From an uncultured Alphaproteobacteria bacterium (GTDB lineage Bacteria; Pseudomonadota; Alphaproteobacteria; RF32; CAG-239), in assembly GCA_910585375.1 (NCBI GenBank), contig CAJUCZ010000036.1:1-12071 (forward strand): a DNA stretch of 12,071 nt. Direction: 5' to 3'. A program made the translations under genes and the position numbers. Positions 1-12,071 of this stretch are shown here, in pieces (the stretch's first letter is position 1; every line of letters starts with the position of its first letter). Under the pieces are notes generated by a model that had not been told where the DNA came from, did not search any database, and saw only the letters and a program-made list of their open reading frames with translations.

Positions 1-1
1 T

Positions 2-673
2 ACGTCTTTAACGTCTTCATCCTACGGCACGAACGGTACCGACGGCTGCGAGTATACCTGTTATTACACCTGCAACCCTAACTGCCCGTCTGGCACATCA
101 ACATCAAACCCCGGAGGCTGCGGCGGGTCGACCAAAAATGGGTGCGGGGATAAAACCTGTTATTACCCATATGTCAGCTGTTGTTCGGAAACCTGTCCGT
201 CTTCTCATCCGTACAGCAATTGCGATTACGGTTATACCAGCATCACCGAAAATGAGTGCGGGACTAAAAAGTGTTATGCCTGCCGACCAGAACCGGGACC
301 TATTGTAAAAACATATTGCTCAGGAAATATGATGTATGAGGATTATAACTATGGAGGAAGCTTTATTGGTGTGATTGTAAATAACCGTATTATACGTAAA
401 GACATTGTGTATAATCGTCGTTCTAATTGTGTATCAAGCTGTACAAGCAGTGTTAAAGCTAACCTAAATTGGAGAATCCCGTCTTCTAATGAAGTGTTGG
501 AATTGCGTTGTGCCATTACAGCAATGGGGGGGCCAATTGACGATACTTACTGGTACGATGGAAATTCTGTTGACGGCGTATGGCTGTTTGGGGATCAGCG
601 AGATAATAATCCTGATAAATATGATATGTATAATGACAACAGCAATTATTGTACCTGTGTATCGGATTTGTAA
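2..673 (+). CDS. Cys-rich protein, 5'-truncated by the window edge, with a C-terminal DUF1566/Lcl-like (C-type-lectin-related) domain
   Basis: Frame 2 has no stop codon from nt 2 to the TAA at 671-673, so the ATG at 329 in the ORF track is internal. The N-terminal part has repeated [G/E]-C-x3-4-[T/K]-C-Y-[Y/A] modules (DGCEYTCYYTC, NGCGDKTCYY, NECGTKKCYAC). The C-terminal part has NWRIPSSNEVLEL and a YW..(n)..VW.F..(n)..K..(n)..C.CV pattern that resembles DUF1566. A strong hairpin terminator follows. Confidence 0.6.
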   Translation, partial: TSLTSSSYGTNGTDGCEYTCYYTCNPNCPSGTSTSNPGGCGGSTKNGCGDKTCYYPYVSCCSETCPSSHPYSNCDYGYTSITENECGTKKCYACRPEPGPIVKTYCSGNMMYEDYNYGGSFIGVIVNNRIIRKDIVYNRRSNCVSSCTSSVKANLNWRIPSSNEVLELRCAITAMGGPIDDTYWYDGNSVDGVWLFGDQRDNNPDKYDMYNDNSNYCTCVSDL

Positions 674-711
674 AAAAGAACCCCGCCTTTGTGACGGGGT
701 TATGTTTTTTT
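672..711. terminator. Bidirectional rho-independent terminator between the convergent DUF1566-like gene and pyrG
   Basis: Stem AACCCCG (679-685) pairs with CGGGGTT (695-701) around a 9-nt loop. An A-run (672-677) lies upstream and a T-run (705-711) downstream, so the hairpin has a U-tract on either strand. Confidence 0.8.
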
Positions 712-712
712 A

Positions 713-2371
713 TTAAATCAACCGGCTTTTGTCAATAGCCGCTTTTACGAACGACACAAACAGCGGTGCCGGCGCAAAAGGTTTGGATTTTAATTCCGGA
801 TGGAACTGTACGCCGATAAACCACGGGTGGTTCGGAATTTCGACAATCTCAGGGAGTTTGCCGTCCGGAGATTTGCCTGAGATAATCATTCCGGCCTGAT
901 TCAGCTGGTTTTCATATTTCATATTGACTTCATAACGGTGACGGTGGCGTTCCGAAATCTTAGCAGCTCCATAGACTTTGCTGACCAGACTATCCGGAGC
1001 CAAAACGCATTCATAAGCGCCCAACCGCATGGTTCCGCCCAAGTCTCCGTCTTTATGGCGGATTTGTTTGGCTCCGTCTTTATCCCATTTGGTCATCAGG
1101 CCGACAACGGCTTCGCAATCTTGTCCGAATTCGGTCGTACCGGCATTGGTTACGCCGCAGACGTTGCGCATAGTTTCAATAACAGCCATTTGCATACCGA
1201 AGCAAATTCCCAAAAACGGAATTTTATTTTCACGGGCGTAACGAATAGCTTTGATTTTGCCGTCCGTACCGCGGCAGCCGAAGCCGCCAGGAACCAATAT
1301 GCCGCTGACATCGCCGAGTTGTTCGGCAACATCTTCATTTTCCAGAGCTTCCGAATCAATCCATTTGATTTTGACCTTATGTTTATTGGCAATGCCGCCG
1401 TGCGTCAGGGCTTCGCCCAAAGATTTGTAGGTATCGAGCATCTGGGTATATTTGCCGACTACCGCAATATTGACTTCCCCTTCGGGATGAGTAATCGTTT
1501 CGACGATATGTTCCCATTTGCTCAAATCCGCCGGTTTGCTGTCTATGCCGAAGTATTTGCAGACCTGAGCGTCCATGCCTTCATGAGAATAAGCCAGAGG
1601 AACGGCATAAATACTTTTGGCATCAAGCGCGGCAATGACGTTTTCTTCTTTAATGTTACAGAACATGGCGATTTTGCGTTTTTCGTTCTGCGGGATTTCT
1701 ATCTGCGAGCGGCAGAGCAGCATATCAGGCTGAATTCCGTATTCCTGCAATTGTTTGACCGAGTGCTGGGTCGGTTTGGTTTTCAGTTCGCCGGAAGCAT
1801 TAATAAACGGCAGCAGCGTGACATGGATAAACATGACGCGGTCGCGCCCCAAATCATAAGAAGTCTGGCGGATGGCTTCCAGAAACGGCTGACCTTCAAT
1901 ATCACCGACCGTACCGCCGATTTCGCACAACACAAAATCTTCATCATGAATGTCTGATTTGATAAATTCTTTAATCTCATTTGTCACATGCGGAATAACC
2001 TGAATTGTGGCGCCGAGGTAATCGCCGTGACGTTCTTTGTCCAAAACGCGCTGATAAATTTTGCCGGAAGTGACGCTGTCGGTTTTGTGGCAGGATATGC
2101 CGGCAAAGCGTTCATAATGCCCTAAGTCCAGATCGGTTTCGGCACCGTCGTCGGTTACAAAAACTTCACCGTGCTGATAGGGGCTCATTGTTCCGGGGTC
2201 TACGTTCAGATAAGGATCAAGCTTGCGCATTCTGACTTTAAAGCCACGCGCCTGCAGCGTTGCCGCCAGAGAAGCTGAGGCCAGACCTTTTCCCAGAGAG
2301 GAAACCACGCCGCCGGTAATGAAGATAAATTTTGTTTTCGGATTTAAATTTGCTTGGGTGTTATCAGACAT
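713..2371 (-). CDS. pyrG: CTP synthase (glutamine-hydrolysing)
   Basis: 552 aa. The N-terminus [16 protein letters not shown] and the motifs [15 protein letters not shown] and [22 protein letters not shown] mark the synthase domain. The C-terminal GATase domain has GICFGMQ and the [12 protein letters not shown] motifs. The SD-like AAGGAAG lies upstream of the ATG at 2369-2371. Confidence 0.97.
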
Positions 2372-2418
2372 TTTTCTTCCTTATTTGAACATATTAACTT
2401 GTGCTTTTTAAAGTGACA

Positions 2419-2443
2419 AAGGCGCTGTCGGAACAAGCGCCTT
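2419..2443 (-). terminator. Intergenic hairpin between secG and pyrG (possible weak terminator or attenuator)
   Basis: 8-bp stem AAGGCGCT (2419-2426) pairs with AGCGCCTT (2436-2443) around a 9-nt loop. On the transcribed minus strand the trailing U-tract is interrupted (TTGTCACTTT), so termination is probably partial. Confidence 0.4.
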
Positions 2444-2464
2444 ATTTTTATTGTCTTTTTTCAT

Positions 2465-2797
2465 TTATTTACCTGCTGCAGGAACTTCAGGAGCCTTATC
2501 AGCCTCTGTTGCCTGTACAGGAACAGTCTGCTCTATCGAATCGATCAGCGACTTTTTAGGCGCGCTGTGCCCTTTATAATAAAGAGACAGAGAAATACTG
2601 GTGATAATGAAAATTGTTGCAAGAATTGCGGTCAGACGGGTCAGAAAGTTTCCGGTTCCGCGGGCGCTTAAAAAGCTGCTGGCGCCGGAACCGCCGCCAA
2701 GGCCGTCCAAAGCACCGCCTTCAGAACGTTGCAATAAGATGATGGCAACCAGAAAGATTGCGACCAACAAGTGAATTACGAGTAAAATTGTTCCCAT
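2465..2797 (-). CDS. secG: Preprotein translocase subunit SecG
   Basis: The sequence MGTILLVIHLLVAIFLVAIILLQRSEGGALDGLGGG...FLTRLTAILATIFIITSISLSLY shows the typical two-TM SecG with its LLQ..kG.G..G signature. I prefer the start at the ATG at 2795-2797 (110 aa). It is preceded by GGAAAGGAAG and lies 16 nt after the tpiA stop. The ORF-track start at 2857 would overlap tpiA by 44 nt. Confidence 0.9.
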   Translation of the reverse strand: MGTILLVIHLLVAIFLVAIILLQRSEGGALDGLGGGSGASSFLSARGTGNFLTRLTAILATIFIITSISLSLYYKGHSAPKKSLIDSIEQTVPVQATEADKAPEVPAAGK

Positions 2798-2813
2798 GTT
2801 TCTTCCTTTCCGA

Positions 2814-3578
2814 TTAGCAGCAGCCGGCGTTTTTGGCAATAGAGATAAAATCTTCAACCTTCAGGCTGGCACCGCCGATGAGCGCGCCGTCGACATCGGG
2901 CAAAGACAGAAATTCTTTGGCATTGGCGGGTTTGACCGAACCGCCGTACAAAATGCGCATTTTATTGGCATTGCCTTTGCCGAGCTTTTTAGCCAAAACT
3001 TTGCGTACGGCAGCATGAACTTCCTCAACATCCTGCGCCGTCGGGGTTTTGCCCGTTCCGATAGCCCAGACAGGTTCATAAGCGATGACGGTATTGGAGG
3101 CATCGGCATTGTCGGGAACGGAACCCAGAATCTGAGAAGAGCAAACGTCAATGGTTTTGCCCGAATCGCGTTGTTCCAAGGTTTCGCCGATGCAGATAAC
3201 GGCTTTCAGTCCGGCTTCATAAGCGGCAACGGCTTTTTTGTTAATCAGTTCGTTGCTTTCATTATGGTCGGCACGTCTCTCGGAATGGCCGAGAATCACA
3301 TATTGGCAGCCGGCGTCTTTGAGCATGGCCGGGCTGACATCGCCGGTATGCGCACCCTTAACGTTGAAATGGGCGTCTTGCGCACCGAGAGCAACCTTGG
3401 CGCCGCGCAGGGCTTTTTTAACGGTTGTCAGCAGCGTAAACGGCGGACACACCAGAAATTCGCAGGAGGGTTTGCTCATTTTTTTTACTTCGGCGGCAAT
3501 TCCTTTTGCCAATTCAGTACCTTCGGCCAGCAGGCAGTTCATTTTCCAGTTGCCGGCAATCATTTTTTTTCTTGCCAT
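2814..3578 (-). CDS. tpiA: Triosephosphate isomerase
   Basis: 254 aa. Canonical TIM motifs are present: IAGNWKMN, VILGHSERR, ICIGE, AYEPVWAIGTG and YGGSV. Confidence 0.96.
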   Translation of the reverse strand: MARKKMIAGNWKMNCLLAEGTELAKGIAAEVKKMSKPSCEFLVCPPFTLLTTVKKALRGAKVALGAQDAHFNVKGAHTGDVSPAMLKDAGCQYVILGHSERRADHNESNELINKKAVAAYEAGLKAVICIGETLEQRDSGKTIDVCSSQILGSVPDNADASNTVIAYEPVWAIGTGKTPTAQDVEEVHAAVRKVLAKKLGKGNANKMRILYGGSVKPANAKEFLSLPDVDGALIGGASLKVEDFISIAKNAGCC

Positions 3579-3690
3579 AATTTGTTTTCCTCTTCAAATT
3601 TTATTAAAAATTTTCAATTTGCTTTCCTTTTAGCACAGCAAATTATATTTTTCCAGTAGAAAAAACTTTTCAACACTAATATTTATACGA

Positions 3691-3720
3691 TTGCATATAT
3701 TATTAAAATTGCATTATAAT
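3691..3720 (+). promoter_or_regulatory. Candidate sigma70-type promoter for the ppiD-like gene, within the AT-rich divergent tpiA/ppiD intergenic region
   Basis: TTGCAT (3691-3696), an 18-nt spacer, then TATAAT (3715-3720), about 40 nt upstream of the ATG at 3760. This is a pattern match only. Confidence 0.35.
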
Positions 3721-3759
3721 TGCGCCAGCTTAATTAATATATAAATAAGGTCAGAAAAA

Positions 3760-5640
3760 ATGATTGGAAAAATTAGAAGTATTCAGGACTCTTGGGTGAT
3801 GAAGCTGATTTTGATTCTTACGGCCCTGAGTTTTATGTCCCTCTTCGGCGTCTCCGGCTATTATGCCACGGCGGCCAACAACAAGCCGGTGATTAAGGTA
3901 GACGATATTGAGATTACCCAAAGCCAGATTATGAACGAACTGAACAGCGAACTCCAAAAAGCCAAGTCTTTGTTCGGCGAGAATCTGGACGTCAATGAAA
4001 ATATCCGCAACGCCTTGTTGCAGGGGATTATCCAAAAAGAGCTTTCCAATGCCATTTTGCAAAAAACGGCTCAGGACAACAATGTTTATATCAGTGACGA
4101 GCTGATTAAGAAGATTATTTCTTCCCAGCCTGAGTTTATGGACGAGAACGGCAAATTCAGCGTTCAGCGGATGCGCCGGATTTTGGCCTCGGTCGGTATG
4201 AGCGAGCAGGAATATATTCAGTCACTGCGCCGTGATATTGAGAAAATCCACCTTGTTTACAATATGGTGGACGGCGTTACCGTACCCGAATTTATGGCTG
4301 ATTATCAATATAAGCTTGATAATCAGAAAAAAGTTTTCAAATTTATCAATATTGATCCGGAACAGATGAAAATTGACCGCAAAATTTCGCAAGACGAGAT
4401 TGAGCAGTATTACAACGATTTTGCCGCCCAATTCATTGAACCGGAGAATCGGGATGTTTCTTTCATCAGCATTTCCAGTGCCGATGCCGCCGGAAAGGTT
4501 TTGATTTCCGATGAAGACATCAAAGCCTATTATAACGAAAACATCAAACAGTTTGAAGTTCCGGAAAGCAGAAACATTCTGCAAATGGTCTTTTCAAACA
4601 AAGATGACGCAGAAAAAGCTTATGCCCAATTGAAAAACGGCGCGGATTTTTATGCTGTTGCCAAGAAAGAGGCTAATCAGGACAAAGCCGCCACGGAGCT
4701 TGGTTTTGTGGAAAAAGACATGCTTATCGGCAATATGGGCGATGTGATGTTCAGCCTGAAGAAAGGCGAGATTTCCGAACCGGAAGAATCCGAATACGGC
4801 TGGCATATCATGAAAGTGGCTGACATCCGCCCGATGCAGAAGACATCTTGGGAAAAAGCCAAGGCTAAAATTGTTGAGGTTTTGCGCCGCGAGCAGTCTG
4901 ATGAAGCTGCCGGCGACCTGATTGCAAAAATTGAAGACGAAGCCGGTGCAGGAAAATCTTTGGCCGAAATAGCAAAAGGCCTGAACGTACCACTTTTGAA
5001 AGTTGAAGGGCTGCAGGAAGACGGTAAAGCCAAGACGATGCCAAAGAGTTTTGAAAAGCTTGTGGCTTCACCTGATTTTATTGATGCGGCATTTTCTTAT
5101 AATCAGGATGAAACCAGTCAGGCGGTTGAGACTGATGACGGTTTTGTCTTTGTTAATGTTGACAAGATTACGGAACCGCACCAGAAAGCCATGGACGAGG
5201 TTGTGCCGGAGATTGAAAAGATTTGGGCCGGCAATGAAAAGAACGCCATTGCACAGGAAGTTGTCAACGATGTACTTCATGACGTGGAAAACGGTGATAA
5301 GATTGAAGACGTAGCCAGACGTTTCGGACTGAAGCTTCAGACGACGGCTCCGTTAAAAAAATCTGACACATTTGACGGTTTCTCCGCCCTGCAAATGCAG
5401 GAACTGTTCAGAGAGAACATCGGAACGCCGAAAGTCATCGGCGATGACATGCGTCAGGTGATTGTGGTACCGGTAAAAGTTATTAACAGTTCGGACAAGC
5501 TGACAGAAAGCGAGAAAAAAGACATTTTGCGCAAGGCACAATTTGAGACCTCGCAGGAAATGGCTCAACAGCTGATTAATGATTACGGTTCAAACTACCG
5601 GATTAAGATTAAATATAAGGCCGTTGGCATTATAGACTAA
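3760..5640 (+). CDS. ppiD: PpiD-like periplasmic chaperone / parvulin-type peptidyl-prolyl isomerase (SurA-N domain, N-terminal membrane anchor)
   Basis: 626 aa. The N-terminus has the IQDSWVMKLILILTALSFMSLFGVSGY anchor, followed by a long helical chaperone region. A central parvulin/rotamase-like segment is present (NILQMVF...GADFYAVAKK...LGFVEKDML...GEISEPEESEYGWHIMKV). Its position divergent from tpiA matches the usual alphaproteobacterial arrangement. Confidence 0.85.
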   Translation: MIGKIRSIQDSWVMKLILILTALSFMSLFGVSGYYATAANNKPVIKVDDIEITQSQIMNELNSELQKAKSLFGENLDVNENIRNALLQGIIQKELSNAILQKTAQDNNVYISDELIKKIISSQPEFMDENGKFSVQRMRRILASVGMSEQEYIQSLRRDIEKIHLVYNMVDGVTVPEFMADYQYKLDNQKKVFKFINIDPEQMKIDRKISQDEIEQYYNDFAAQFIEPENRDVSFISISSADAAGKVLISDEDIKAYYNENIKQFEVPESRNILQMVFSNKDDAEKAYAQLKNGADFYAVAKKEANQDKAATELGFVEKDMLIGNMGDVMFSLKKGEISEPEESEYGWHIMKVADIRPMQKTSWEKAKAKIVEVLRREQSDEAAGDLIAKIEDEAGAGKSLAEIAKGLNVPLLKVEGLQEDGKAKTMPKSFEKLVASPDFIDAAFSYNQDETSQAVETDDGFVFVNVDKITEPHQKAMDEVVPEIEKIWAGNEKNAIAQEVVNDVLHDVENGDKIEDVARRFGLKLQTTAPLKKSDTFDGFSALQMQELFRENIGTPKVIGDDMRQVIVVPVKVINSSDKLTESEKKDILRKAQFETSQEMAQQLINDYGSNYRIKIKYKAVGIID

Positions 5641-5648
5641 CCTTGGAT

Positions 5649-5680
5649 AAAGCCCTGCCCCGAGCGGGGCTTTATTTTTT
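5649..5680 (+). terminator. Rho-independent terminator of ppiD
   Basis: GCCCC (5657-5661), GAGC loop, GGGGC (5666-5670); an alternative pairing is AAAGCCC/GGGCTTT. Followed by TTTATTTTTT. Confidence 0.8.
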
Positions 5681-5737
5681 GTAAAAAACGCTTGCCAAAT
5701 AAAATTATTTGGTTATGGTATTGGTGTTTGGTTGAAT

Positions 5738-5814
5738 CGGGGTATGGCTCAGCCTGGTAGAGCGCTTGCTTTGGGAGCAAGATGTCGTGGGTTCGAATCC
5801 CGCTGCCCCGACCA
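5738..5814 (+). tRNA. tRNA-Pro (anticodon UGG), CCA-encoded
   Basis: Acceptor stem CGGGGTA (5738-5744) pairs with TGCCCCG (5804-5810), followed by discriminator A and CCA (5812-5814). The D-arm is GCTCAGCCTGGTAGAGC. The anticodon arm is CTTGC-TTTGGGA-GCAAG, giving anticodon TGG. The T-arm is GTGGGTTCGAATCCCGC. Confidence 0.93.
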
Positions 5815-5821
5815 ATAAAAA

Positions 5822-5846
5822 GGGTGCATGAAGTGCACCCTTTTTT
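5822..5846 (+). terminator. Rho-independent terminator after tRNA-Pro
   Basis: GGGTGCA (5822-5828), loop TGAAG, TGCACCC (5834-5840), then TTTTTT (5841-5846). Confidence 0.8.
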
Positions 5847-6119
5847 GTGGTTTCGGAAAGCCGATGACCGGTAAGGCCGGCAGCGTTCAATTTACTCAGT
5901 GCCGCGGAAAAATCCGACGTTTATATAATCTTTTTTTTAGTTCATTTCAGAAAGCTGTTCAGCAGCCGGTTGTTTTTTATTGCTTGTTTTATTTATTCGT
6001 TATATCTTATTTTATCTTTATTCAGAAAGGGCATGATTTTGCAGGGGTATAATTTAAGCCGCAATAAGAGTTTACGGCTTCCGAAGATTATAGAGAACGA
6101 AGCTGGTGTTCTTAATACC

Positions 6120-6635
6120 ATGGACGATTTGTTTGCAACACGTCAGGCATCGGCTCTGGCAGCAGACAAGAAATTTCCGAAAAAGATTGTTGACAGAGAA
6201 GAAAACGATTATGACGCCGAGTTGGAGAGGGTTTTGAAACTGCCTGAAAGCGCAAGTGAGCTGGTTGTGATTACCAAGGCGAAAAAACTCGGCGCTTATA
6301 CGATTGCGATAACGGCCAAGTCGCCGGCAAAGTTTCGCGGCGTGTTTGTCAGCCGAATGCAGAATTTTTGTCTTGACGCCGTGCAAAATATGCTGAATGC
6401 CAATTTTATCCGCGCGGAAGACGAGAAAAGCAAAGAACAGCGGGAAAAGTTTCAGGCAGATGCAATTATCTGCTTGAAAATGCTGGCATATATTGCCATG
6501 GTGGCGGAGAACGCCGGTTGTATTTTGAAAAGACAATACAAACAAATTGCATTACAAGCCGGTGAAACAATAAATCTGGCTCTGGCCTGGAAAAAGAGCG
6601 ATGATGAAAAATGGAGGAATAAGAAAGAGATTTAA
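6120..6635 (+). CDS. avd: Avd-like accessory variability determinant (basic four-helix-bundle protein)
   Basis: It lies immediately upstream of the TR and RT, the canonical avd position. It is helical and basic, and its C-terminal pattern ...IALQAGETINLALAWKKSD... resembles the ...IAEVGRILGSWIARVN... C-terminus of Bordetella phage bAvd (recalled from memory). The start is uncertain: ATG 6120 gives 171 aa, ATG 6033 gives 200 aa, and the ORF-track start 5970 gives 221 aa. None has a strong SD. Confidence 0.7.
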   Translation: MDDLFATRQASALAADKKFPKKIVDREENDYDAELERVLKLPESASELVVITKAKKLGAYTIAITAKSPAKFRGVFVSRMQNFCLDAVQNMLNANFIRAEDEKSKEQREKFQADAIICLKMLAYIAMVAENAGCILKRQYKQIALQAGETINLALAWKKSDDEKWRNKKEI

Positions 6636-6676
6636 AACCGAAAGGTTTTGAATGAGGGAAGACTTGTAAATGCCTT

Positions 6677-6787
6677 ATTTGGTCGGCGTCCGCTAATAAT
6701 AACGGGAATGTTCGCACCGTGAATAATAACGGAAACAAGAACTATAATAACCCCAATAAACGAAAGGACGCCGTTCGGCCCGATTTG
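6677..6787 (+). repeat. DGR template repeat (TR)
   Basis: This 111-nt repeat matches 8318-8428 at a constant offset of +1641 with no indels. Read in the VR frame it gives IWSASANNNGNVRTVNNNGNKNYNNPNKRKDAVRPDL, with 12 AAY codons. It is non-coding here; the overlapping 6719-7039 ORF is a read-through artefact. Confidence 0.93.
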
Positions 6788-7047
6788 CTTTTGAAGGGAA
6801 ACATAAAAATTGCGTCAGGCAAAGCCGCAAGTTTCCGGAAAACAAGCCTGTTTACGGTTTTTATGCAAGAACCGTCCGTGCTGAAAGCAAAGGAAGTTTT
6901 CTCTTTTCCGGCCGCTGCGGGGGAATATACCATGCGGAGGAAGAAACAAAAACAGCAAATGTTTTATGAAATACCACATACGTTGACGCAGTTTTGTTTT
7001 AATGTATTATCGGGTATTTCTTTTTTTATCCGGAGATAAGACAACGC
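6788..7047 (+). ncRNA. TR-RT spacer, probably part of the DGR template RNA (Sp-like region)
   Basis: About 260 nt of non-coding sequence lie between the TR and the RT start. In the BPP-1 DGR the equivalent spacer belongs to the TR RNA and supplies the cDNA priming site. No structure was confidently identified by eye. Confidence 0.45.
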
Positions 7048-8115
7048 ATGAATCTGAGCAAAATATTTTCATTTGAAAATCTGTTGGAAGCCCACAAACT
7101 GTGCCGAAGGAGCAAACAACACAAGCGGGGCGCCATTATGTTTGAGATTGAACTCGGCCGCAACATTGCCAAACTGACAGAAGAGCTGGCTAATAAAAAA
7201 TACAAATTGGGGAAATACAGGCCATTTACCATCTTTGACCCTAAAAAGCGCCTGATTGAAGCCCTGCCTTATAAAGACAGGGTGGTTCTGATGTGTTTTT
7301 GCCGGTATGTGCTTGAACCGCGGCTGGACTGCCGGCTGATTTTTGATAATGCCGCATCAAGAAAAGGCAAAGGTCCGGAATTTGCCATTGAACGCCTTTG
7401 TTGCTTTATCCGCAAACTTTATTGTCAGAAACCTAATGAAGATATCTATTTTTTGAAATGCGACATAGCGAAATACTTTCAAAACATCAATCATACGATA
7501 TTGTTGGAAAAACTACGGCGATGCGGCTTTTCTGACGATGAGATGTGGTTTATGGAGCTGGTTATCCGCTCGCACGGCGAAACAGGCGTTCCGCTCGGAA
7601 ATCAGACAAGCCAGTGGTTTGCCCTGCTCTATCTGGATGAGATTGACCGTCTGATAAAAGAACAACTGCGCGCTCCGTTTTATATCCGTTACATGGACGA
7701 TTTTGTTTTGTTAAGCAGGGATAAGGCCTTTTTGCAGCGTTGCCGGAATGAAATCGGCCAGACCTGCCGTGAGAGTCTGAAATTACAGCTGAACAACAAA
7801 ACGCAAATCGGACGGCTGAAAGACGGACTGGATTTTCTTGGATATAATTTTAAGCTTACGGACACCGGAAAGATTCTTAAAAGCCTGCGCGCCTCGGCCC
7901 GCCGCCGGCAACGGCATTATATTAAGATGATTGCCCGTTATTATTTACAGGACGTGCTTGACGATGAGTATCTTAATGTCCGTTTTAATGCGTTTAAAGC
8001 ACATATGAAAGGGACTTCGGACTGGAAATTTGTACGTGACCGGCTAAACAGCCTGAAAAGGAAAAAACGACTGATGAAAAAAAACGAAGATAAAAAATCC
8101 TTGCCCGTTTGCTGA
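7048..8115 (+). CDS. DGR-class reverse transcriptase
   Basis: 355 aa. RT motif 4 is LGNQTSQ (7594-7614), the [I/L/V]GxxxSQ signature that separates DGR RTs from retron and group II RTs (QGxxxSP). The catalytic YMDD is at 7690-7701. No maturase/X, endonuclease or RNase H domain is evident. Small size and position next to the TR fit a DGR RT. Confidence 0.95.
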   Translation: MNLSKIFSFENLLEAHKLCRRSKQHKRGAIMFEIELGRNIAKLTEELANKKYKLGKYRPFTIFDPKKRLIEALPYKDRVVLMCFCRYVLEPRLDCRLIFDNAASRKGKGPEFAIERLCCFIRKLYCQKPNEDIYFLKCDIAKYFQNINHTILLEKLRRCGFSDDEMWFMELVIRSHGETGVPLGNQTSQWFALLYLDEIDRLIKEQLRAPFYIRYMDDFVLLSRDKAFLQRCRNEIGQTCRESLKLQLNNKTQIGRLKDGLDFLGYNFKLTDTGKILKSLRASARRRQRHYIKMIARYYLQDVLDDEYLNVRFNAFKAHMKGTSDWKFVRDRLNSLKRKKRLMKKNEDKKSLPVC

Positions 8116-8155
8116 AAGTGTAGTATTATTAGTGGTAACTAATGGAGGAACTCTA

Positions 8156-10129
8156 ATGAATACAACATTATTGACAGAAGATCAAATCTGGGGAGACCAA
8201 GCTCTGGATGTTATGAAAAAGTACGGACTCAAAACGGCATTGACCGATTTGGCAATAGTTTTGGGCGGTTTAATGAGTCGCACAAACACAACCTCCGAGG
8301 GTGAACGTTCCGGTTACATTTGGTCGGCGTCCGCTAATTCTTACGGGAGTGTTCGCACCGTGAGTACGTACGGAGACGAGAGCTCGTCTGACCCCTCTGA
8401 GCTTAAGGACGCCGTTCGGCCCGCTTTGTCTCCATCCGAAACATCTAAAATCCGTCCGAACGCAGTGAGGACGCTGAGATTGCCCGAAGGGCAATTGCTT
8501 GAAATTTGCGAATTCGGGGCCTATCCCCAAGATATTGTTTCGAAAAAAATTTCGAAAAATCTGGAAAATTCTTACCAAAAAAGAAGTCTTAAAACAACCG
8601 GAAATTCCTATACTTTCGACAATGCCGGCCTGACCGATTACTCTGCTCCTTTTCAACCTAAAACTTATCAGGAATACGAGGATTCGTCTTCCGGAAAAAG
8701 ATATGTCCGCGTTGAAGGCAAGCCCGCCGATAAGGATTCGATTCTTTCCGACGGGACGCTTGTTCAGAACGGAGAGGCTTATTGGCTGGAGGTCAAGCCG
8801 ATTGAATGGCTGAAAGATCCGAGTGGCGTCTGGGTGGCGAAAAAAGCCCTTTTCTCCGGTATACAATTTGATTCTAACAGCAACTATGACAGCAATTTCT
8901 CTCAAACTGACATGAAGCAGTATCTGGACCGCTATTTCTCAAAGGAAATGCAGGCATCCCGCGATTATTCCGCAAGCCGCAGCCGCAATGCCGACGTTTC
9001 CGAAGAAAAAAGCTTTACGCCCAAACCACCCTCGGCCAGGCAGAAGAAATACGGTATTCAGGTTGTGGACGAACCGATGACGGTTAAAGACCAGATTGAC
9101 TTTTATGTGCAGAACGGCATGTCTTTTATGCTGCACGGGCCTTCCGGCGTCGGAAAGACCGCAAGGGTGGAAGCCATTGATCCTGATCTGACTGCCGTAC
9201 CGTTATGGAACGGCGTTCTGCCTGAAGACGTGGTCGGAAAGGTTCGCTATCCGGACGGGAAAACAGGCCTGCCAGACGAGAACAAGTCCGGCGGGGAATG
9301 GATCGCACCGGATTGGTATGTGGAATTGTGCAAAAAATGCGAGTCGGAGCCGGATAAAAACCATGTTTTGTTTATTGACGAGGTCACTAATGCCCGCCCG
9401 ACAACGCAAAGTCTGATTTTTCATATTACGTTGAAAAAATCCATCAGTCCCAGTAAAGGCAAGCTGCCTTCCAACGCTGTGGTCGTATTGGCAGGAAACA
9501 GCAAAGAAGAATCCGGTGCGGCGTATAATATGCCGGAACCGTTATTCCGCCGGATGTGCGGGCATATTTATCTGGAAGCAAATGTGCCGGAATGGCTGGA
9601 ATGGGCCAGCGAAAAGAGTCGGAAGCACCCCGAAGATCCGGAACGTCTGAACATTCACCCGCTGGTGTCTTCTTTTGTCGGAACTTACGGGCGTCAGGTT
9701 TTCTATTCTTCTTATGATGAGGAAAACCCGCAGCAGTGGGCAATGGATCCGCGCGGATGGGAACAGGTTTCGGACATTATTTATGACAACAAAGGCATTA
9801 TCCGGCGCGAATTGCTGGAAAGCAAAATGGGTAAGGAACTGGCAGCCAATCTGCTGGCTTATGCAAAAAATCCGCCGCTTTCACTGGAAGAAGTAATTAA
9901 CGGCGAATACTCGGAACGTGACATTCCGTCCGGAAACGATGCCCGTTTGGCATTGACGCTCAGCCTTCGCCATGTGGACGACCGGCAGGTCGGAAAAGTC
10001 AGGGATTTTATTCGGGAAAATCTCGGGCGGGAAAACGAGGCCGTCTTTGATTCTTTCTGGATTGGCAAAGATGACGAGAGGGCTTTGCTGATTGCCCGTC
10101 AGAAACAATTTAGAAACGCAGGGAGGTAA
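8156..10129 (+). CDS. DGR target protein: N-terminal hypervariable ligand-binding-type domain fused to a MoxR/AAA_5-like AAA+ ATPase
   Basis: I prefer the start at ATG 8156, which has GGAGG at 8144-8148, 7 nt upstream; the ORF-track GTG at 8132 has no SD. The protein is 657 aa. The VR encodes residues 55-91. ATPase motifs are Walker A GPSGVGKT (9137-9160), Walker B VLFIDE (9365-9382), sensor-1-like VVLAGN, and PLFRRM in the position of the MoxR ALLDRF arginine. No signal peptide or TM segment is seen. Confidence 0.85.
   Translation: MNTTLLTEDQIWGDQALDVMKKYGLKTALTDLAIVLGGLMSRTNTTSEGERSGYIWSASANSYGSVRTVSTYGDESSSDPSELKDAVRPALSPSETSKIRPNAVRTLRLPEGQLLEICEFGAYPQDIVSKKISKNLENSYQKRSLKTTGNSYTFDNAGLTDYSAPFQPKTYQEYEDSSSGKRYVRVEGKPADKDSILSDGTLVQNGEAYWLEVKPIEWLKDPSGVWVAKKALFSGIQFDSNSNYDSNFSQTDMKQYLDRYFSKEMQASRDYSASRSRNADVSEEKSFTPKPPSARQKKYGIQVVDEPMTVKDQIDFYVQNGMSFMLHGPSGVGKTARVEAIDPDLTAVPLWNGVLPEDVVGKVRYPDGKTGLPDENKSGGEWIAPDWYVELCKKCESEPDKNHVLFIDEVTNARPTTQSLIFHITLKKSISPSKGKLPSNAVVVLAGNSKEESGAAYNMPEPLFRRMCGHIYLEANVPEWLEWASEKSRKHPEDPERLNIHPLVSSFVGTYGRQVFYSSYDEENPQQWAMDPRGWEQVSDIIYDNKGIIRRELLESKMGKELAANLLAYAKNPPLSLEEVINGEYSERDIPSGNDARLALTLSLRHVDDRQVGKVRDFIRENLGRENEAVFDSFWIGKDDERALLIARQKQFRNAGR
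8318..8428 (+). repeat. DGR variable repeat (VR) inside the target gene
   Basis: Cognate of TR 6677-6787. There are 23 mismatches in 111 nt, 20 of them at TR adenines (20 of the 38 TR adenines differ). It encodes IWSASANSYGSVRTVSTYGDESSSDPSELKDAVRPAL. The GC-rich 3' block AAGGACGCCGTTCGGCCCG (8405-8423) is identical to the TR and could serve as an IMH. Confidence 0.93.
8479..8495 (+). promoter_or_regulatory. Hairpin downstream of the VR (candidate DGR target-recognition hairpin/cruciform)
   Basis: ATTGCCC (8479-8485), GAA loop, GGGCAAT (8489-8495). It begins 51 nt after the end of the VR, inside the coding sequence. Confidence 0.4.
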
Positions 10130-10131
10130 GT

Positions 10132-10512
10132 ATGAACAATAAAAAAATGCTGTTTGAGCAGGTATTGGACAACAATCCCCGGCATCCGGTTATTTTGGCC
10201 GGAAATACGGAGCTTTCCCTGCCCTCCTGCGTATTCATGCCGGCGGATATTGCCGAACGGGAACTGTTTATTCCGTCTGACTGGAGCAAGGCGCTTGACT
10301 TCGAGGCACAAAGGGGAAAAGCTTATCTTTTGATTGAAGGGTTGGACAAGTTGGCACCGGCGCAGCAAAGAAAATTTTGTATGCTTTTGAAAAACCGGCG
10401 GGCGGGAAATTACAAGCTGCCCGACAATGTCAGCATTGTTATTCCGGTTGCCGACAAATCAGGCCTGTCTGCAGAGATACTATCTCTTTCATTGTTATGG
10501 GACGTTGAATAA
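10132..10512 (+). CDS. Small P-loop-less AAA-like protein (degenerate paralogue of the upstream ATPase core)
   Basis: 126 aa. GGGAGG (10121-10126) precedes the ATG at 10132, 2 nt after the upstream TAA. By eye, YLLIEGLDKLAPAQQRKFCMLLKNRRAGNYKLPDNVSIVIPVA aligns with VLFIDEVTNARPTTQSLIFHITLKKSISPSKGKLPSNAVVVLAGN of the ATPase. Where the P-loop would sit it has VILAGNTELSL, with no GxxGxGK[ST]. Confidence 0.6.
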   Translation: MNNKKMLFEQVLDNNPRHPVILAGNTELSLPSCVFMPADIAERELFIPSDWSKALDFEAQRGKAYLLIEGLDKLAPAQQRKFCMLLKNRRAGNYKLPDNVSIVIPVADKSGLSAEILSLSLLWDVE

Positions 10513-12071
10513 TGCATGCGGACAATAATGACATTGATTATATCAGGGAGCGGGTTCTGCGGAAATTTCCGCTGCTCGGCGTGACGATGTCTGCATTGAA
10601 CACAGTGGCCGATGACAATATCGGCACAGCAGCAACGGACGGGCACACCGTTTATTATTCTCCAAAGTTTTTCGCACCACTTTCCGATGATGAAAAAACT
10701 TTTATTTATGCGCATGAGGTTATGCATGTGGCTTTTAATCATATTCTGCGCAGCAAGGACAAAAAACAGCGTTTGTGGAATACGGCAACGGATGCCGTCA
10801 TCAACCAGATTCTCAAAAACGAAGAATTGCCGATGATTGACGGCGGCGTAGATATGGCCGAAGCTGTCAATAAATCTGCCGAAGAAATGTATGAAAGGCT
10901 TCTCAAAGAACAGGAAGAAAAAGAAAAAGAAAAAGATAAAGATAAAAATCAACAACAGCAAGATGAAAGCCATTCCGCACAACAGCCTGAGGACGGCAAA
11001 CAACAGCAAAATGCGCCTCGGCCTCAGGATGATAATCAGCCGGAGCCAAAACGTCCTCAAGAACAGGAAAATAATGACGGAGACGGAGAAGAAAGCGAAC
11101 AGGCCGGGCATGACAATCATAATATTTGGAAAAAAGCCGTAGAAAAGGCTGAAAAAGAAAAACAGCAGCAAGAAGATCAACAGAAAGGAAATTCTCCAAC
11201 ACAGAAGCAGGAGAAATCCGGACAAAGTCTTTTGGACAAGTTGAAAGACTTATTTAAAAAGCCGGAAAAGCCTGCTGATACAGATAAGTCAGAAAGCCAG
11301 ACACCACAGACAGGAAGCTCTGACGGCGCTGACAGTCCGCGTTCCAAAGACAATGAGAGTGTTTATGAAAAAAGGTTTGGCGAAGATAACCGTCAGGAAC
11401 GTAAAAAACAGGCAGAACAAATCCGCAAGGCTTTACAGCAACATAAAAATGAAATTATTAAAGCGCAATCCGAAGAATATTCTTTTGGCAACGTCGGAGA
11501 GGCCAAGGCTGTCACAGACTGGAAAAAACTTTTAAAAAAGACAATCGAAAAAGAAGAAGACCGATGGTCTTACCGTCGTTCCGGTGCCGACAACGATTAT
11601 ATGGCCCGTGTGGAAGAACTGGAAGAAGAGAATTTGTCGGAAACTGAAGTTATGCTGGATGTCAGCGGATCGGTTGACGAAGGTATGCTTAAAGAATTTT
11701 TACGGCAGCTCAAGCCTATTTTAAAGACTTCAAAACTTAAGGTCGGATGTTTTGATCACCGGATTTTTGGTTTTAAGGAGATTAAAAATAATCATGACAT
11801 TGACAATTTCAGTGTTCCGGGCGGCGGCGGAACGAATATTGATCAGGCCGTACGGGCGTTTTCCAAGAAAAAAGAAGTCAACAAGATTGTTTTTACGGAT
11901 GGTTATTCCCATGATATGCCGCGGCAGGATTTGAAAAATACGAATGTCATATGGCTTATTTATGACAACAAAAATTTTAATCCGGTTTGCGGAAAAGTGA
12001 TTTATGTCGATCGTGCCAAACTTGGCCAGAATTATATCAAAAATGCCTATTTTGCAAGAGGCGGCAGATAA
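10512..12071 (+). CDS. Putative Zn-metallopeptidase (HExxH, DUF2201_N-like) - acidic/Q-rich linker - VWA-like domain (DUF2201-like) protein
   Basis: 519 aa. The start overlaps the upstream stop (TAATG at 10510-14). The N-domain has GTAATDG...YYSP and HEVMH (10713-10727), followed by NTATDAVIN. The C-domain has the MIDAS-type DVSGS (11658-11672), GGGGTN and VFTDGY...VIWLIY. The stop TAA falls at the last bases of the window. Confidence 0.85.
   Translation: MHADNNDIDYIRERVLRKFPLLGVTMSALNTVADDNIGTAATDGHTVYYSPKFFAPLSDDEKTFIYAHEVMHVAFNHILRSKDKKQRLWNTATDAVINQILKNEELPMIDGGVDMAEAVNKSAEEMYERLLKEQEEKEKEKDKDKNQQQQDESHSAQQPEDGKQQQNAPRPQDDNQPEPKRPQEQENNDGDGEESEQAGHDNHNIWKKAVEKAEKEKQQQEDQQKGNSPTQKQEKSGQSLLDKLKDLFKKPEKPADTDKSESQTPQTGSSDGADSPRSKDNESVYEKRFGEDNRQERKKQAEQIRKALQQHKNEIIKAQSEEYSFGNVGEAKAVTDWKKLLKKTIEKEEDRWSYRRSGADNDYMARVEELEEENLSETEVMLDVSGSVDEGMLKEFLRQLKPILKTSKLKVGCFDHRIFGFKEIKNNHDIDNFSVPGGGGTNIDQAVRAFSKKKEVNKIVFTDGYSHDMPRQDLKNTNVIWLIYDNKNFNPVCGKVIYVDRAKLGQNYIKNAYFARGGR

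Follow-up and report, generated by a model that had tools for sequence, protein, structure and literature searches.

Very probable diversification of the N-terminal domain of a MoxR-like AAA+ ATPase by a diversity-generating retroelement in an uncultured alphaproteobacterium

Which protein does a diversity-generating retroelement (DGR) serve when its variable repeat lies in the 5′ part of a long gene, and what may such a retroelement be doing inside the cell? This question is raised by a locus on contig CAJUCZ010000036.1 of assembly GCA_910585375.1, from an uncultured Alphaproteobacteria bacterium. Positions 1 to 12,071 of this contig (the whole stretch analysed, called the window below) provide the numbering used throughout, and the genes were taken from an open reading frame (ORF) listing, Pfam and tRNA scans. 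Positions 6033-12071 very probably form a self-contained cassette of five plus-strand genes, including an active DGR that acts on a cytoplasmic MoxR-like AAA+ ATPase and diversifies its N-terminal domain, by the mechanism and with the function proposed below. The cassette occupies the remainder of the window after a tRNA-Pro gene. In order, it consists of an avd-like gene (6033-6635), 412 nt of non-coding DNA containing the template repeat (TR), a reverse transcriptase (RT) gene (7048-8115), and genes for proteins of 657, 126 and 519 residues, the first of which carries the variable repeat (VR). A previous reading of the letters alone (the sequence-only reading) had described a complete, "textbook" DGR with its target downstream of the RT, in an order other than that of phage BPP-1. 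The order avd-TR-RT-target is indeed seen, and the defining features (adenine-specific differences, a DGR-type RT, Avd and population diversification) are all present. The word "textbook" suits the mutagenesis signature and does not suit the target, a MoxR-like AAA+ ATPase with the VR at its N-terminus, which that reading had missed.

The TR (6677-6787, plus strand) and the VR (8318-8428, plus strand, corresponding to target residues 55-91) constitute a two-copy direct repeat of 111 nt that aligns without gaps at 79% identity, as had been claimed and as a repeat finder reports independently. Compared base by base, the two copies differ at 23 positions, 20 of them TR adenines, and every position listed in the sequence-only reading was recovered. 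Changes affect 20 of the 38 adenines of the TR and 3 of its 73 other bases (Fisher p = 5.9e-9), so that the adenine enrichment held upon realignment. The three remaining mismatches are T6727>G, T6745>G and G6762>T (VR positions 8368, 8386 and 8403), each adjoining a mutated adenine. When the window is taken together with a second assembly of the locus (L001, see below), which differs at VR position 24, the non-adenine changes amount to three T-to-G and one G-to-T, all adjoining mutated adenines; two of the non-adenine differences between TR and VR occur in an ATA>CGT context. These changes may represent occasional misincorporation beside adenine sites.

The VR begins in codon phase with the 657-residue ORF. 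Read in this frame, the TR carries 12 AAY codons (Y being C or T), its other adenine-containing codons being AAG (twice), AAA, TAT, CGA, GAC, GAT, GGA, ACC and ATT, and the peptides encoded by TR and VR differ at 16 of 37 residues. For the 12 AAY codons, 15^12 gives 1.3e14 variants. Recalculation thus returned the earlier values for AAY codons, amino acid differences and variants. The accompanying statement that variation proceeds free of stops applies to the AAY codons; other TR codons, namely AAG at 6737-6739 and 6764-6766 and AAA at 6758-6760, can become stop codons. With two AAG and one AAA in the TR of the window, a share of retrohoming events must produce null alleles.

A repeat of this kind might have arisen by chance or by duplication beside an RT of another class, such as group II, retron, abortive infection (Abi) or defence-associated (DRT) enzymes. 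The RT of the window (7048-8115, plus strand, 355 residues, Pfam RVT_1) does show sub-threshold matches to NCBIfam group II and Drt3a models, and PADLOC DRT models match its RT domain. The scores of the NCBIfam group II, Drt (including Drt3a) and retron models are all far below their cutoffs, however, and the PADLOC matches involve generic RT/DRT models only. The best PDB sequence match is 8ub7_A, the DGR RT of a Bordetella phage (E = 4.4e-33, residues 4-293), followed by a group II maturase (1.5e-11), by retron, Cas-associated, DRT and Abi-type RTs (1e-4 to 1e-8), with retrons at about 1e-6. Judged by these E-values, the enzyme appears closer to the DGR RT than to group II by about 20 orders of magnitude. 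It also matches the phage RT family phrog_1423 (E = 3.5e-94), and its translation contains both motifs reported earlier, LGNQTSQ and YMDD. The adenine bias (p = 6e-9), the nearest relative, the LGNQTSQ motif and the adjacent Avd together refute the idea of a fortuitous repeat, to which we assign practically no probability.

The avd-like gene (6033-6635, plus strand) encodes 200 residues, with a conserved N-terminal extension and a C-terminal four-helix bundle. Its product matches the PHROG family phrog_3206, "Avd protein of DGR" (E = 8.8e-14), and 30 of 31 homologues match the Pfam family bAvd (PF22296; best E = 1.3e-6). An AlphaFold2 (AF2) model of the family shows the C-terminal four-helix bundle, the top PDB matches of which are members of the S23/IVS family (2gsc, 2rld), 8ub7_B and 4dwl; against 4dwl (bAvd) the model reaches a template modelling (TM) score of 0.76 on the target with probability 1.0. 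A PDB profile search with the Avd alignment built from the related loci gave no match. Based on Pfam family, PHROG and fold evidence, the upstream gene is an Avd homologue, as the earlier description of an Avd-like protein implied. The start at 6120 assumed there needs correction: about 45 additional N-terminal residues are conserved in relatives and an identical protein of 200 residues is on record, which places the start at the ATG at 6033.

Is this DGR still at work, or is it a decaying relic with old differences between TR and VR? In favour of the latter one may quote the 3 of 23 mismatches that lie off adenines, as well as VR stop codons in several related assemblies. Against it stands a direct comparison with L001, a Logan assembly from a different run that overlaps the window at 5759-12071. 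Over these 6313 nt the two sequences show 28 differences, all of them within the VR at 8339-8406, while the TR is identical, and 24 of the 28 fall at TR-adenine positions. Likewise, a 90%-identity cluster of the target (49 sequences) contains at least 8 distinct VR peptides among the full-length members examined; the remainder of the protein is constant, and variation falls at codons that carry adenines in the TR. The two comparisons are about as close to direct evidence of ongoing mutagenic retrohoming as sequence data permit. RT, Avd and target are intact in the window. The VR stop codons (TAG or TAA) of three related loci (L058, 6163-6272; L112, 3700-3809; L067, 6157-6277) sit precisely at TR AAG or AAA sites and are hence products of DGR activity rather than signs of decay. 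In two of them (L058 and L112), the TR itself contains an in-frame TAA, so that an unmutated copy of the TR would inactivate the target. As a side observation, several near-identical database proteins of the target are annotated with a start downstream of the VR. The same TR-to-VR geometry is found in more than 13 related loci, in some of which the mismatches fall on adenines only (15/15, 22/22, 23/23 and 25/25); metagenome loci and a Bacilli genome bin show it as well. Taken together, the DGR is, judged from these comparisons, genuine and recently active; a relic is contradicted by the results and is considered highly improbable.

Cis elements and RNA were also compared among loci. The 3′ end of the TR (6765-6788, plus strand) is GC-rich, reading GGACGCCGTTCGGCCCG followed by ATTTG, and resembles the initiation of mutagenic homing element of template repeats (IMH*); its counterpart at the end of the VR (8406-8429, plus strand), resembling IMH, lies within coding sequence. 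Across 13 DGR loci the TR ends in CCCGATTTGC and the VR in CCCGCTTTGC, and the same A-to-C difference (A6783 in the TR, C8424 in the VR) recurs in 13 of 13. It thus represents a fixed difference of the IMH*/IMH type and not a random mutagenesis event. Consequently, the sequence-only reading, which had taken all twenty adenine mismatches as mutagenesis, located them properly at adenines and counted one, A6783, that is a constant of the system.

A candidate retrohoming-enhancing hairpin, ATTGCCC-GAA-GGGCAAT, is present at 8479-8495 (plus strand), within the coding sequence and 51-67 nt past the VR. Two relatives (L002, L003) retain it, and a third (L004) has CCTGCCC-GAA-GGGCAGG with two compensatory, synonymous pair changes; a second clade carries a different 7-bp hairpin that abuts the VR end, and some loci have no perfect hairpin. 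A role of the hairpin in retrohoming is suggested rather than established.

The 412 nt between avd and RT are strongly conserved. They comprise a structured non-coding region (6636-7027, plus strand) with a 5′ hairpin, the TR, a spacer of 260 nt, a terminal hairpin at 6968-7020 and a run of seven T, which probably corresponds to the DGR RNA. RNAalifold, applied to 7 loci, yields 90 pairs, 31 of them with compensatory double changes. Shuffled columns give 11.5 +/- 2.4 such pairs (0 of 500 shuffles reach the observed value), and sliding the partners by 1-3 columns gives 3-11; covariation of this RNA is therefore directly observed. Three of the predicted helices join the conserved ends of the TR to each other (6680-6688 with 6769-6777), the 3′ end of the TR to spacer sequence (6780-6791 with 6884-6893), and the sequence 5′ of the TR likewise to spacer sequence (6654-6665 with 6894-6905). 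An Rfam scan of the window found the tRNA only, the TR-spacer RNA being without a match. A promoter-like site, TTGACG-16-TATTAT, is conserved across loci at 6983-7010, just 5′ of the RT gene, and part of the conservation of the RNA region may be transcriptional in origin.

The target gene (8156-10129, plus strand, 657 residues) starts with an ATG after GGAGG. Its product combines a variable domain (residues 1-270, encoded by 8156-8965, plus strand), predicted to form a compact alpha/beta unit, with a low-complexity linker and a MoxR-like AAA+ module (residues ~294-657). The VR occupies residues 55-91 of 657, that is, not the C-terminus, and this placement is the same in all related loci. An alignment of 32 homologues displays a hypervariable patch on the scaffold W.AS....V..V...G.........R..A.RPALP, the remainder being well conserved. 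The AF2 model of residues 1-270 has a pLDDT of 94.5 and a pTM of 0.92. Foldseek searches with this model against the PDB and BFVD returned nothing with E < 0.08 (TM scores of about 0.15-0.19), and Pfam and PDB sequence and profile searches with the domain gave no match. Based on the order of strands and helices in the model (beta-alpha-alpha-beta), the first ~95 residues could form a minimal lectin-like fold. The pattern W-S-A-S...VR.V...G...VRP resembles that of DUF1566-type VRs.

We also considered that the domain might be a circularly permuted DUF6273, an idea prompted by the motifs FGxYPQ, PIEW, WxxS and VRPAL. The DUF6273 Pfam model matches 0 of 20 members at E up to 1, and an artificially permuted sequence reaches E = 0.1 at best; this assignment is not claimed. 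Two further observations concern the DNA of the target gene. A promoter-like hexamer pair is found at 8101-8129, just 5′ of the gene, and a perfect AT-rich palindrome, TTTCGAAAAAAATTTCGAAA, at 8538-8557 inside it; the palindrome is common to the window and L003, and not to L002 or L004.

The ATPase module displays an invariant Walker A motif (GPSGVGKT), a Walker B motif (VLFIDE, of the type hhhhDE) and an RR pair throughout the 32-homologue alignment. Within this family 29 of 32 members match AAA_5 and 28 of 32 match AAA_3 (the MoxR family). The module matches phrog_1297, "ATPase", with E = 5e-36, the family profile weakly matches the MoxR-like PDB entry 2r44 (E = 0.01), and two database homologues carry the JGI name "MoxR-like ATPase"; in the PDB, single-sequence and profile searches with ATPase and N-domain gave weak or noise matches only. 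The lack of a signal peptide or membrane segment, together with the requirement for ATP, indicates that the target acts in the cytoplasm. An 869-residue NCBI protein (P0109) has ankyrin repeats in place of the N-terminal region, and its ATPase module is ~80% identical from residue 294. This exchange of ankyrin repeats for the variable domain suggests that the N-terminus behaves as an exchangeable binding module. At some loci the ATPase lacks the first 85-118 residues.

Two genes follow. A conserved protein of 126 residues (p126; 10132-10512, plus strand), between the ATPase and the last gene, was found by tblastn in most of the related genome loci and is missing in several; searches of Pfam (to E = 10), NCBIfam, PADLOC and PHROG gave no match for it. 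The partner of 519 residues (10512-12071, plus strand) consists of a zincin-like metallopeptidase (HEVMH at residues 68-72), an acidic linker and a C-terminal VWA-like domain (DVSGS). It matches DUF2201_N (Pfam, E = 6e-29, metallopeptidase), DUF2201 (E = 3e-12, VWA-like) and phrog_1314 (E = 4.6e-66). The linker (10900-11200) is a long E/K/Q/D-rich stretch of low complexity with purine-rich short repeats (families D1 and D3). By tblastn, a DUF2201 partner lies downstream in 34 of 37 loci compared; in the three loci without a match (L010, L036, L037) the ATPase match ends a few bases from the end of the stored locus. A literature search on DUF2201 found nothing relevant.

How widely does this arrangement occur? 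The related genome loci (n=36) come, all but a few, from gut or rumen Alphaproteobacteria bins, and conservation of the cassette among them is directly observed. In the window, the neighbouring genes are housekeeping genes: pyrG (713-2371, minus strand), secG and tpiA (minus strand, between pyrG and the rotamase in gene order) and a PpiD-like rotamase (3760-5640). A tRNA-Pro(TGG) gene (5738-5814, plus strand; ARAGORN and Rfam) forms the left border of the cassette, and a terminator scan reports a terminator-like hairpin directly after it (5817-5845). Base composition does not distinguish the cassette from its flanks. In a close relative (L003) tRNA-Pro and tRNA-Arg border the five genes on either side, and the flanks differ at other loci. 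The same five-gene cassette occurs in a Bacilli bacterium (L121; GCA_017941985.1, JAGAVI010000069.1, 7001-12965), adjoining TrbL_2, PrgI, VirB4-like, SSB and CHAP genes. The conjugation genes point to a conjugative element there. Its target is 35% identical over the full length, with a VR at residues 67-100 and 7 of 9 mismatches at adenines. The occurrence of the cassette in this bin suggests either spread across phyla on conjugative elements or mis-binning.

A profile of the N-domain (residues 1-270) matches 2472 representative clusters at E up to 1e-3 among 1.84 billion proteins, many of the short matches possibly being contig-end fragments. Some proteins consist of the domain alone or in tandem; others carry it at one or the other end of the same ATPase, or together with other extensions. 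Among 80 metagenome loci with the domain, mostly from human gut, the ATPase is present in only four; in most, the domain is followed by an unrelated C-terminal part of ~150 residues (412-465 residues in total), with up to three paralogues per contig. Human gut contigs with this latter architecture are L042, L051, L055, L073, L087, L091, L096 and L106. Three loci of this set (L058, L078, L112) have avd, RT and TR, and the VR is again 157-162 nt from the start codon. A DGR thus also stands beside N-domain proteins other than the ATPase, so that its association appears to be with the domain and not with the ATPase, and the VR keeps its N-terminal position throughout the family. A single DGR may act in trans on several targets.

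Based on these data, we propose the following mechanism, in which the priming and retrohoming steps follow BPP-1 by homology. An RNA spanning the TR and the structured 260-nt spacer would be made downstream of avd. The RT, together with Avd, would copy the TR into complementary DNA (cDNA) and misincorporate opposite adenines, and the resulting cDNA would take the place of the VR (8318-8428), towards the 5′ end of the target gene. The GC-rich 3′ end, with its one fixed base difference between TR and VR (A6783/C8424), would impose the direction, and the hairpin 50 nt deeper in the coding sequence may assist retrohoming. In this way ~17 codons (target residues 61-85) would be rewritten, which in the model map to loops and short strands of the compact 270-residue domain. 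As for function, architecture and analogy only would make the variable domain the ligand- or substrate-recognition module of the ATPase, and the ATPase, the metallopeptidase-VWA protein and the small protein a chaperone/co-chaperone or protease-activating machine. If the variable domain is such a recognition module, the DGR would alter the choice of intracellular protein that the machine binds. The likeliest ligand may be a component of phages or other mobile elements.

Several results weigh against this proposal or parts of it. On its own, the target of the window scores 19.7 bits against AAA_5, below the cutoff of 22, and the Avd of the window is likewise under threshold (Pfam bAvd, E = 0.013; NCBIfam DivGenRetAVD, 0.0024), so that both assignments rest on family-level and fold evidence. 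The hairpin at 8479-8495 is no longer than 7 bp, and several related loci lack it or have a different one; the promoter-like site at 6983-7010 overlaps one of the predicted RNA helices. By tblastn the ATPase is present in 36 of 36 genome loci, and Avd and RT in only ~13; many relatives with the three-gene module have no DGR within 6 kb, which indicates that the module works without diversification. Finally, PADLOC (E up to 0.01) matches none of target, p126 and partner to a defence model, and with housekeeping genes as neighbours, a role in conflict or defence is read by analogy only.

A more specific version of the functional part holds that the cassette is an anti-phage or anti-mobile-element sensor: binding of invader proteins by the variable domain in the cytoplasm would activate the ATPase and its metallopeptidase-VWA partner, leading to degradation of the invader or to abortive infection. 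DGR-diversified sensors in MoxR-vWA conflict systems have been documented by comparative genomics (PMC7159879, PMC10907252), and the predicted cytoplasmic location of the target would suit a sensor of this type. The cassette lies at tRNA genes in varied contexts and, in the Bacilli bin, beside conjugation genes, which is typical of mobile accessory cargo, and on some contigs the variable domain is present in two or three paralogues. The negative PADLOC result and the housekeeping neighbourhood in the window argue against such a sensor, as does the lack of a VMAP, TIR, caspase or nuclease effector. On balance, we rate its chances as appreciable and somewhat short of even.

A different benefit would follow if the ATPase/metallopeptidase-VWA pair were an assembly chaperone derived from a phage or conjugative element. 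The DGR would then diversify a client-binding domain to the advantage of the element, e.g., in countering host defences or adapting to new hosts, and not for defence of the cell. This is consistent with the matches of ATPase and partner to the phage families phrog_1297 and phrog_1314, and with the TrbL, PrgI, VirB4-like and CHAP genes next to the Bacilli cassette (L121). For the same pair architecture in jumbo phages, a role as chaperone of virion assembly has been proposed (PMC7824862), and DGRs borne on integrative and conjugative elements (ICEs) are known in Bacteroides (bioRxiv 10.1101/2024.11.15.621889). However, a scan of 2.9 million viral contigs found no relative of the variable domain, and phage or conjugation genes around the cassette were found neither in the window nor in its close relatives. 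We consider this explanation unlikely.

Comparison with BPP-1 (avd-TR-brt, with mtd as target) shows how ordinary the retroelement itself is. Both systems share an Avd four-helix bundle, an RT with the motif I/LGxxxSQ (the BPP-1 enzyme being the nearest solved relative), a TR followed by structured spacer RNA, adenine-specific mutagenesis of an AAY-rich TR, a GC-rich 3′ end with a difference between TR and VR, and a hairpin downstream of the VR. The window differs from BPP-1 in the order avd-TR-RT-target, in a VR at residues 55-91 of 657 and not at the C-terminus, which places IMH and hairpin within coding sequence, in a chromosomal rather than phage location, and in a variable domain without a detectable C-type lectin fold; a cytoplasmic AAA+ ATPase takes the place of the phage tail fibre as target.

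Large surveys describe VRs as nearly always C-terminal and located systematically in C-type lectin folds, for the most part of surface or virion proteins. One survey suggests as a cause that the cis elements need an intergenic position (PMC8144416); in another the VR stands at the gene end in 87% (PMC11661182). N-terminal VRs were counted in 3 of 372 DGRs by Wu et al. (2018, PMC5758913), with the IMH then constrained by coding sequence. The text of that paper names one of the three targets, a ribosomal protein S3-like protein of a candidate phyla radiation (CPR) organism, and describes none as an AAA+ ATPase with an N-terminal VR; as in the window, the IMH of these systems necessarily overlaps coding sequence.

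A further parallel is provided by cyanobacteria and Thiohalocapsa PB-PSB1, in which DGRs are coupled to MoxR-vWA (VMAP ternary) conflict systems (Kaur et al., 2020, PMC7159879; Dore et al., 2024, PMC10907252). These systems likewise join a DGR to an AAA+ ATPase of the MoxR type and to a vWA protein with a peptidase, and the domain that they diversify is regarded as an intracellular sensor. Their VR, however, lies in a C-terminal C-type lectin/FGE-like domain (FGE, formylglycine-generating enzyme), carried either by the vWA protein or by another target protein, the MoxR protein being separate and invariant. In the window, by contrast, it is the ATPase that bears the variable domain, at its N-terminus, whereas the vWA protein has no VR and is fused to its peptidase, a zincin; neither a VMAP domain nor a death-like adaptor was detected. 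The hosts differ as well, being multicellular for the VMAP systems and unicellular gut bacteria for the type described here.

The MoxR AAA+/metallopeptidase-vWA pair of group 2.2 jumbo phages was described as a likely chaperone/co-chaperone that involves proteolytic processing (Iyer et al., 2021, PMC7824862). A MoxR-like ATPase adjoining a vWA protein with an N-terminal metallopeptidase is common to these phages and the window, in line with the PHROG matches given above. The phage pair, for which virion assembly was proposed, has no reported DGR or variable N-domain, and the window adds the 126-residue gene in between. The ICE-borne DGRs of Bacteroides resemble the L121 cassette as gut DGR cargo of conjugative elements. 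They diversify C-terminal C-type lectin heads of surface pilus adhesins, unlike the window (bioRxiv 10.1101/2024.11.15.621889). In the literature searched, we found no DGR that diversifies the N-terminus of an ATPase paired with a metallopeptidase-vWA protein; this coverage is incomplete, and catalogues may hold such loci unannotated. Hence the DGR mechanism is ordinary and well supported, and the target layout, with an N-terminal VR, an unmatched fold, a cytoplasmic MoxR-like ATPase and a compact mobile cassette, is unusual.

The cassette breaks with the layout of C-terminal VRs, lectin folds and surface proteins, and does so in an abundant and clearly active family in which the VR and its flanking elements lie in the 5′ part of a 2-kb gene. 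Even if the variable domain were merely a relocated lectin-like head, its position would show that placement of the VR is not a mechanistic constraint. The five-gene system would allow one to ask what cellular DGR targets recognise and how a MoxR/VWA-peptidase machine picks its clients, and it may be a starting point for engineered, retargetable intracellular binders. We further entertain, as a tentative and rather doubtful proposition, that the N-domain represents a DGR scaffold other than the C-type lectin fold, and that the cassette works as an intracellular recognition machine that can be programmed. If this were true, DGR cis-elements would operate inside coding sequence, which would lift the supposed constraint of VRs to C-termini. 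By hypermutating ~17 residues, the DGR would direct a MoxR-type AAA+ remodeller, along with its zincin-VWA partner, towards new proteins of the cytoplasm. This would provide both unicellular gut bacteria and the conjugative elements bearing the cassette with an anticipatory, antibody-like means of binding and processing the proteins of invaders.

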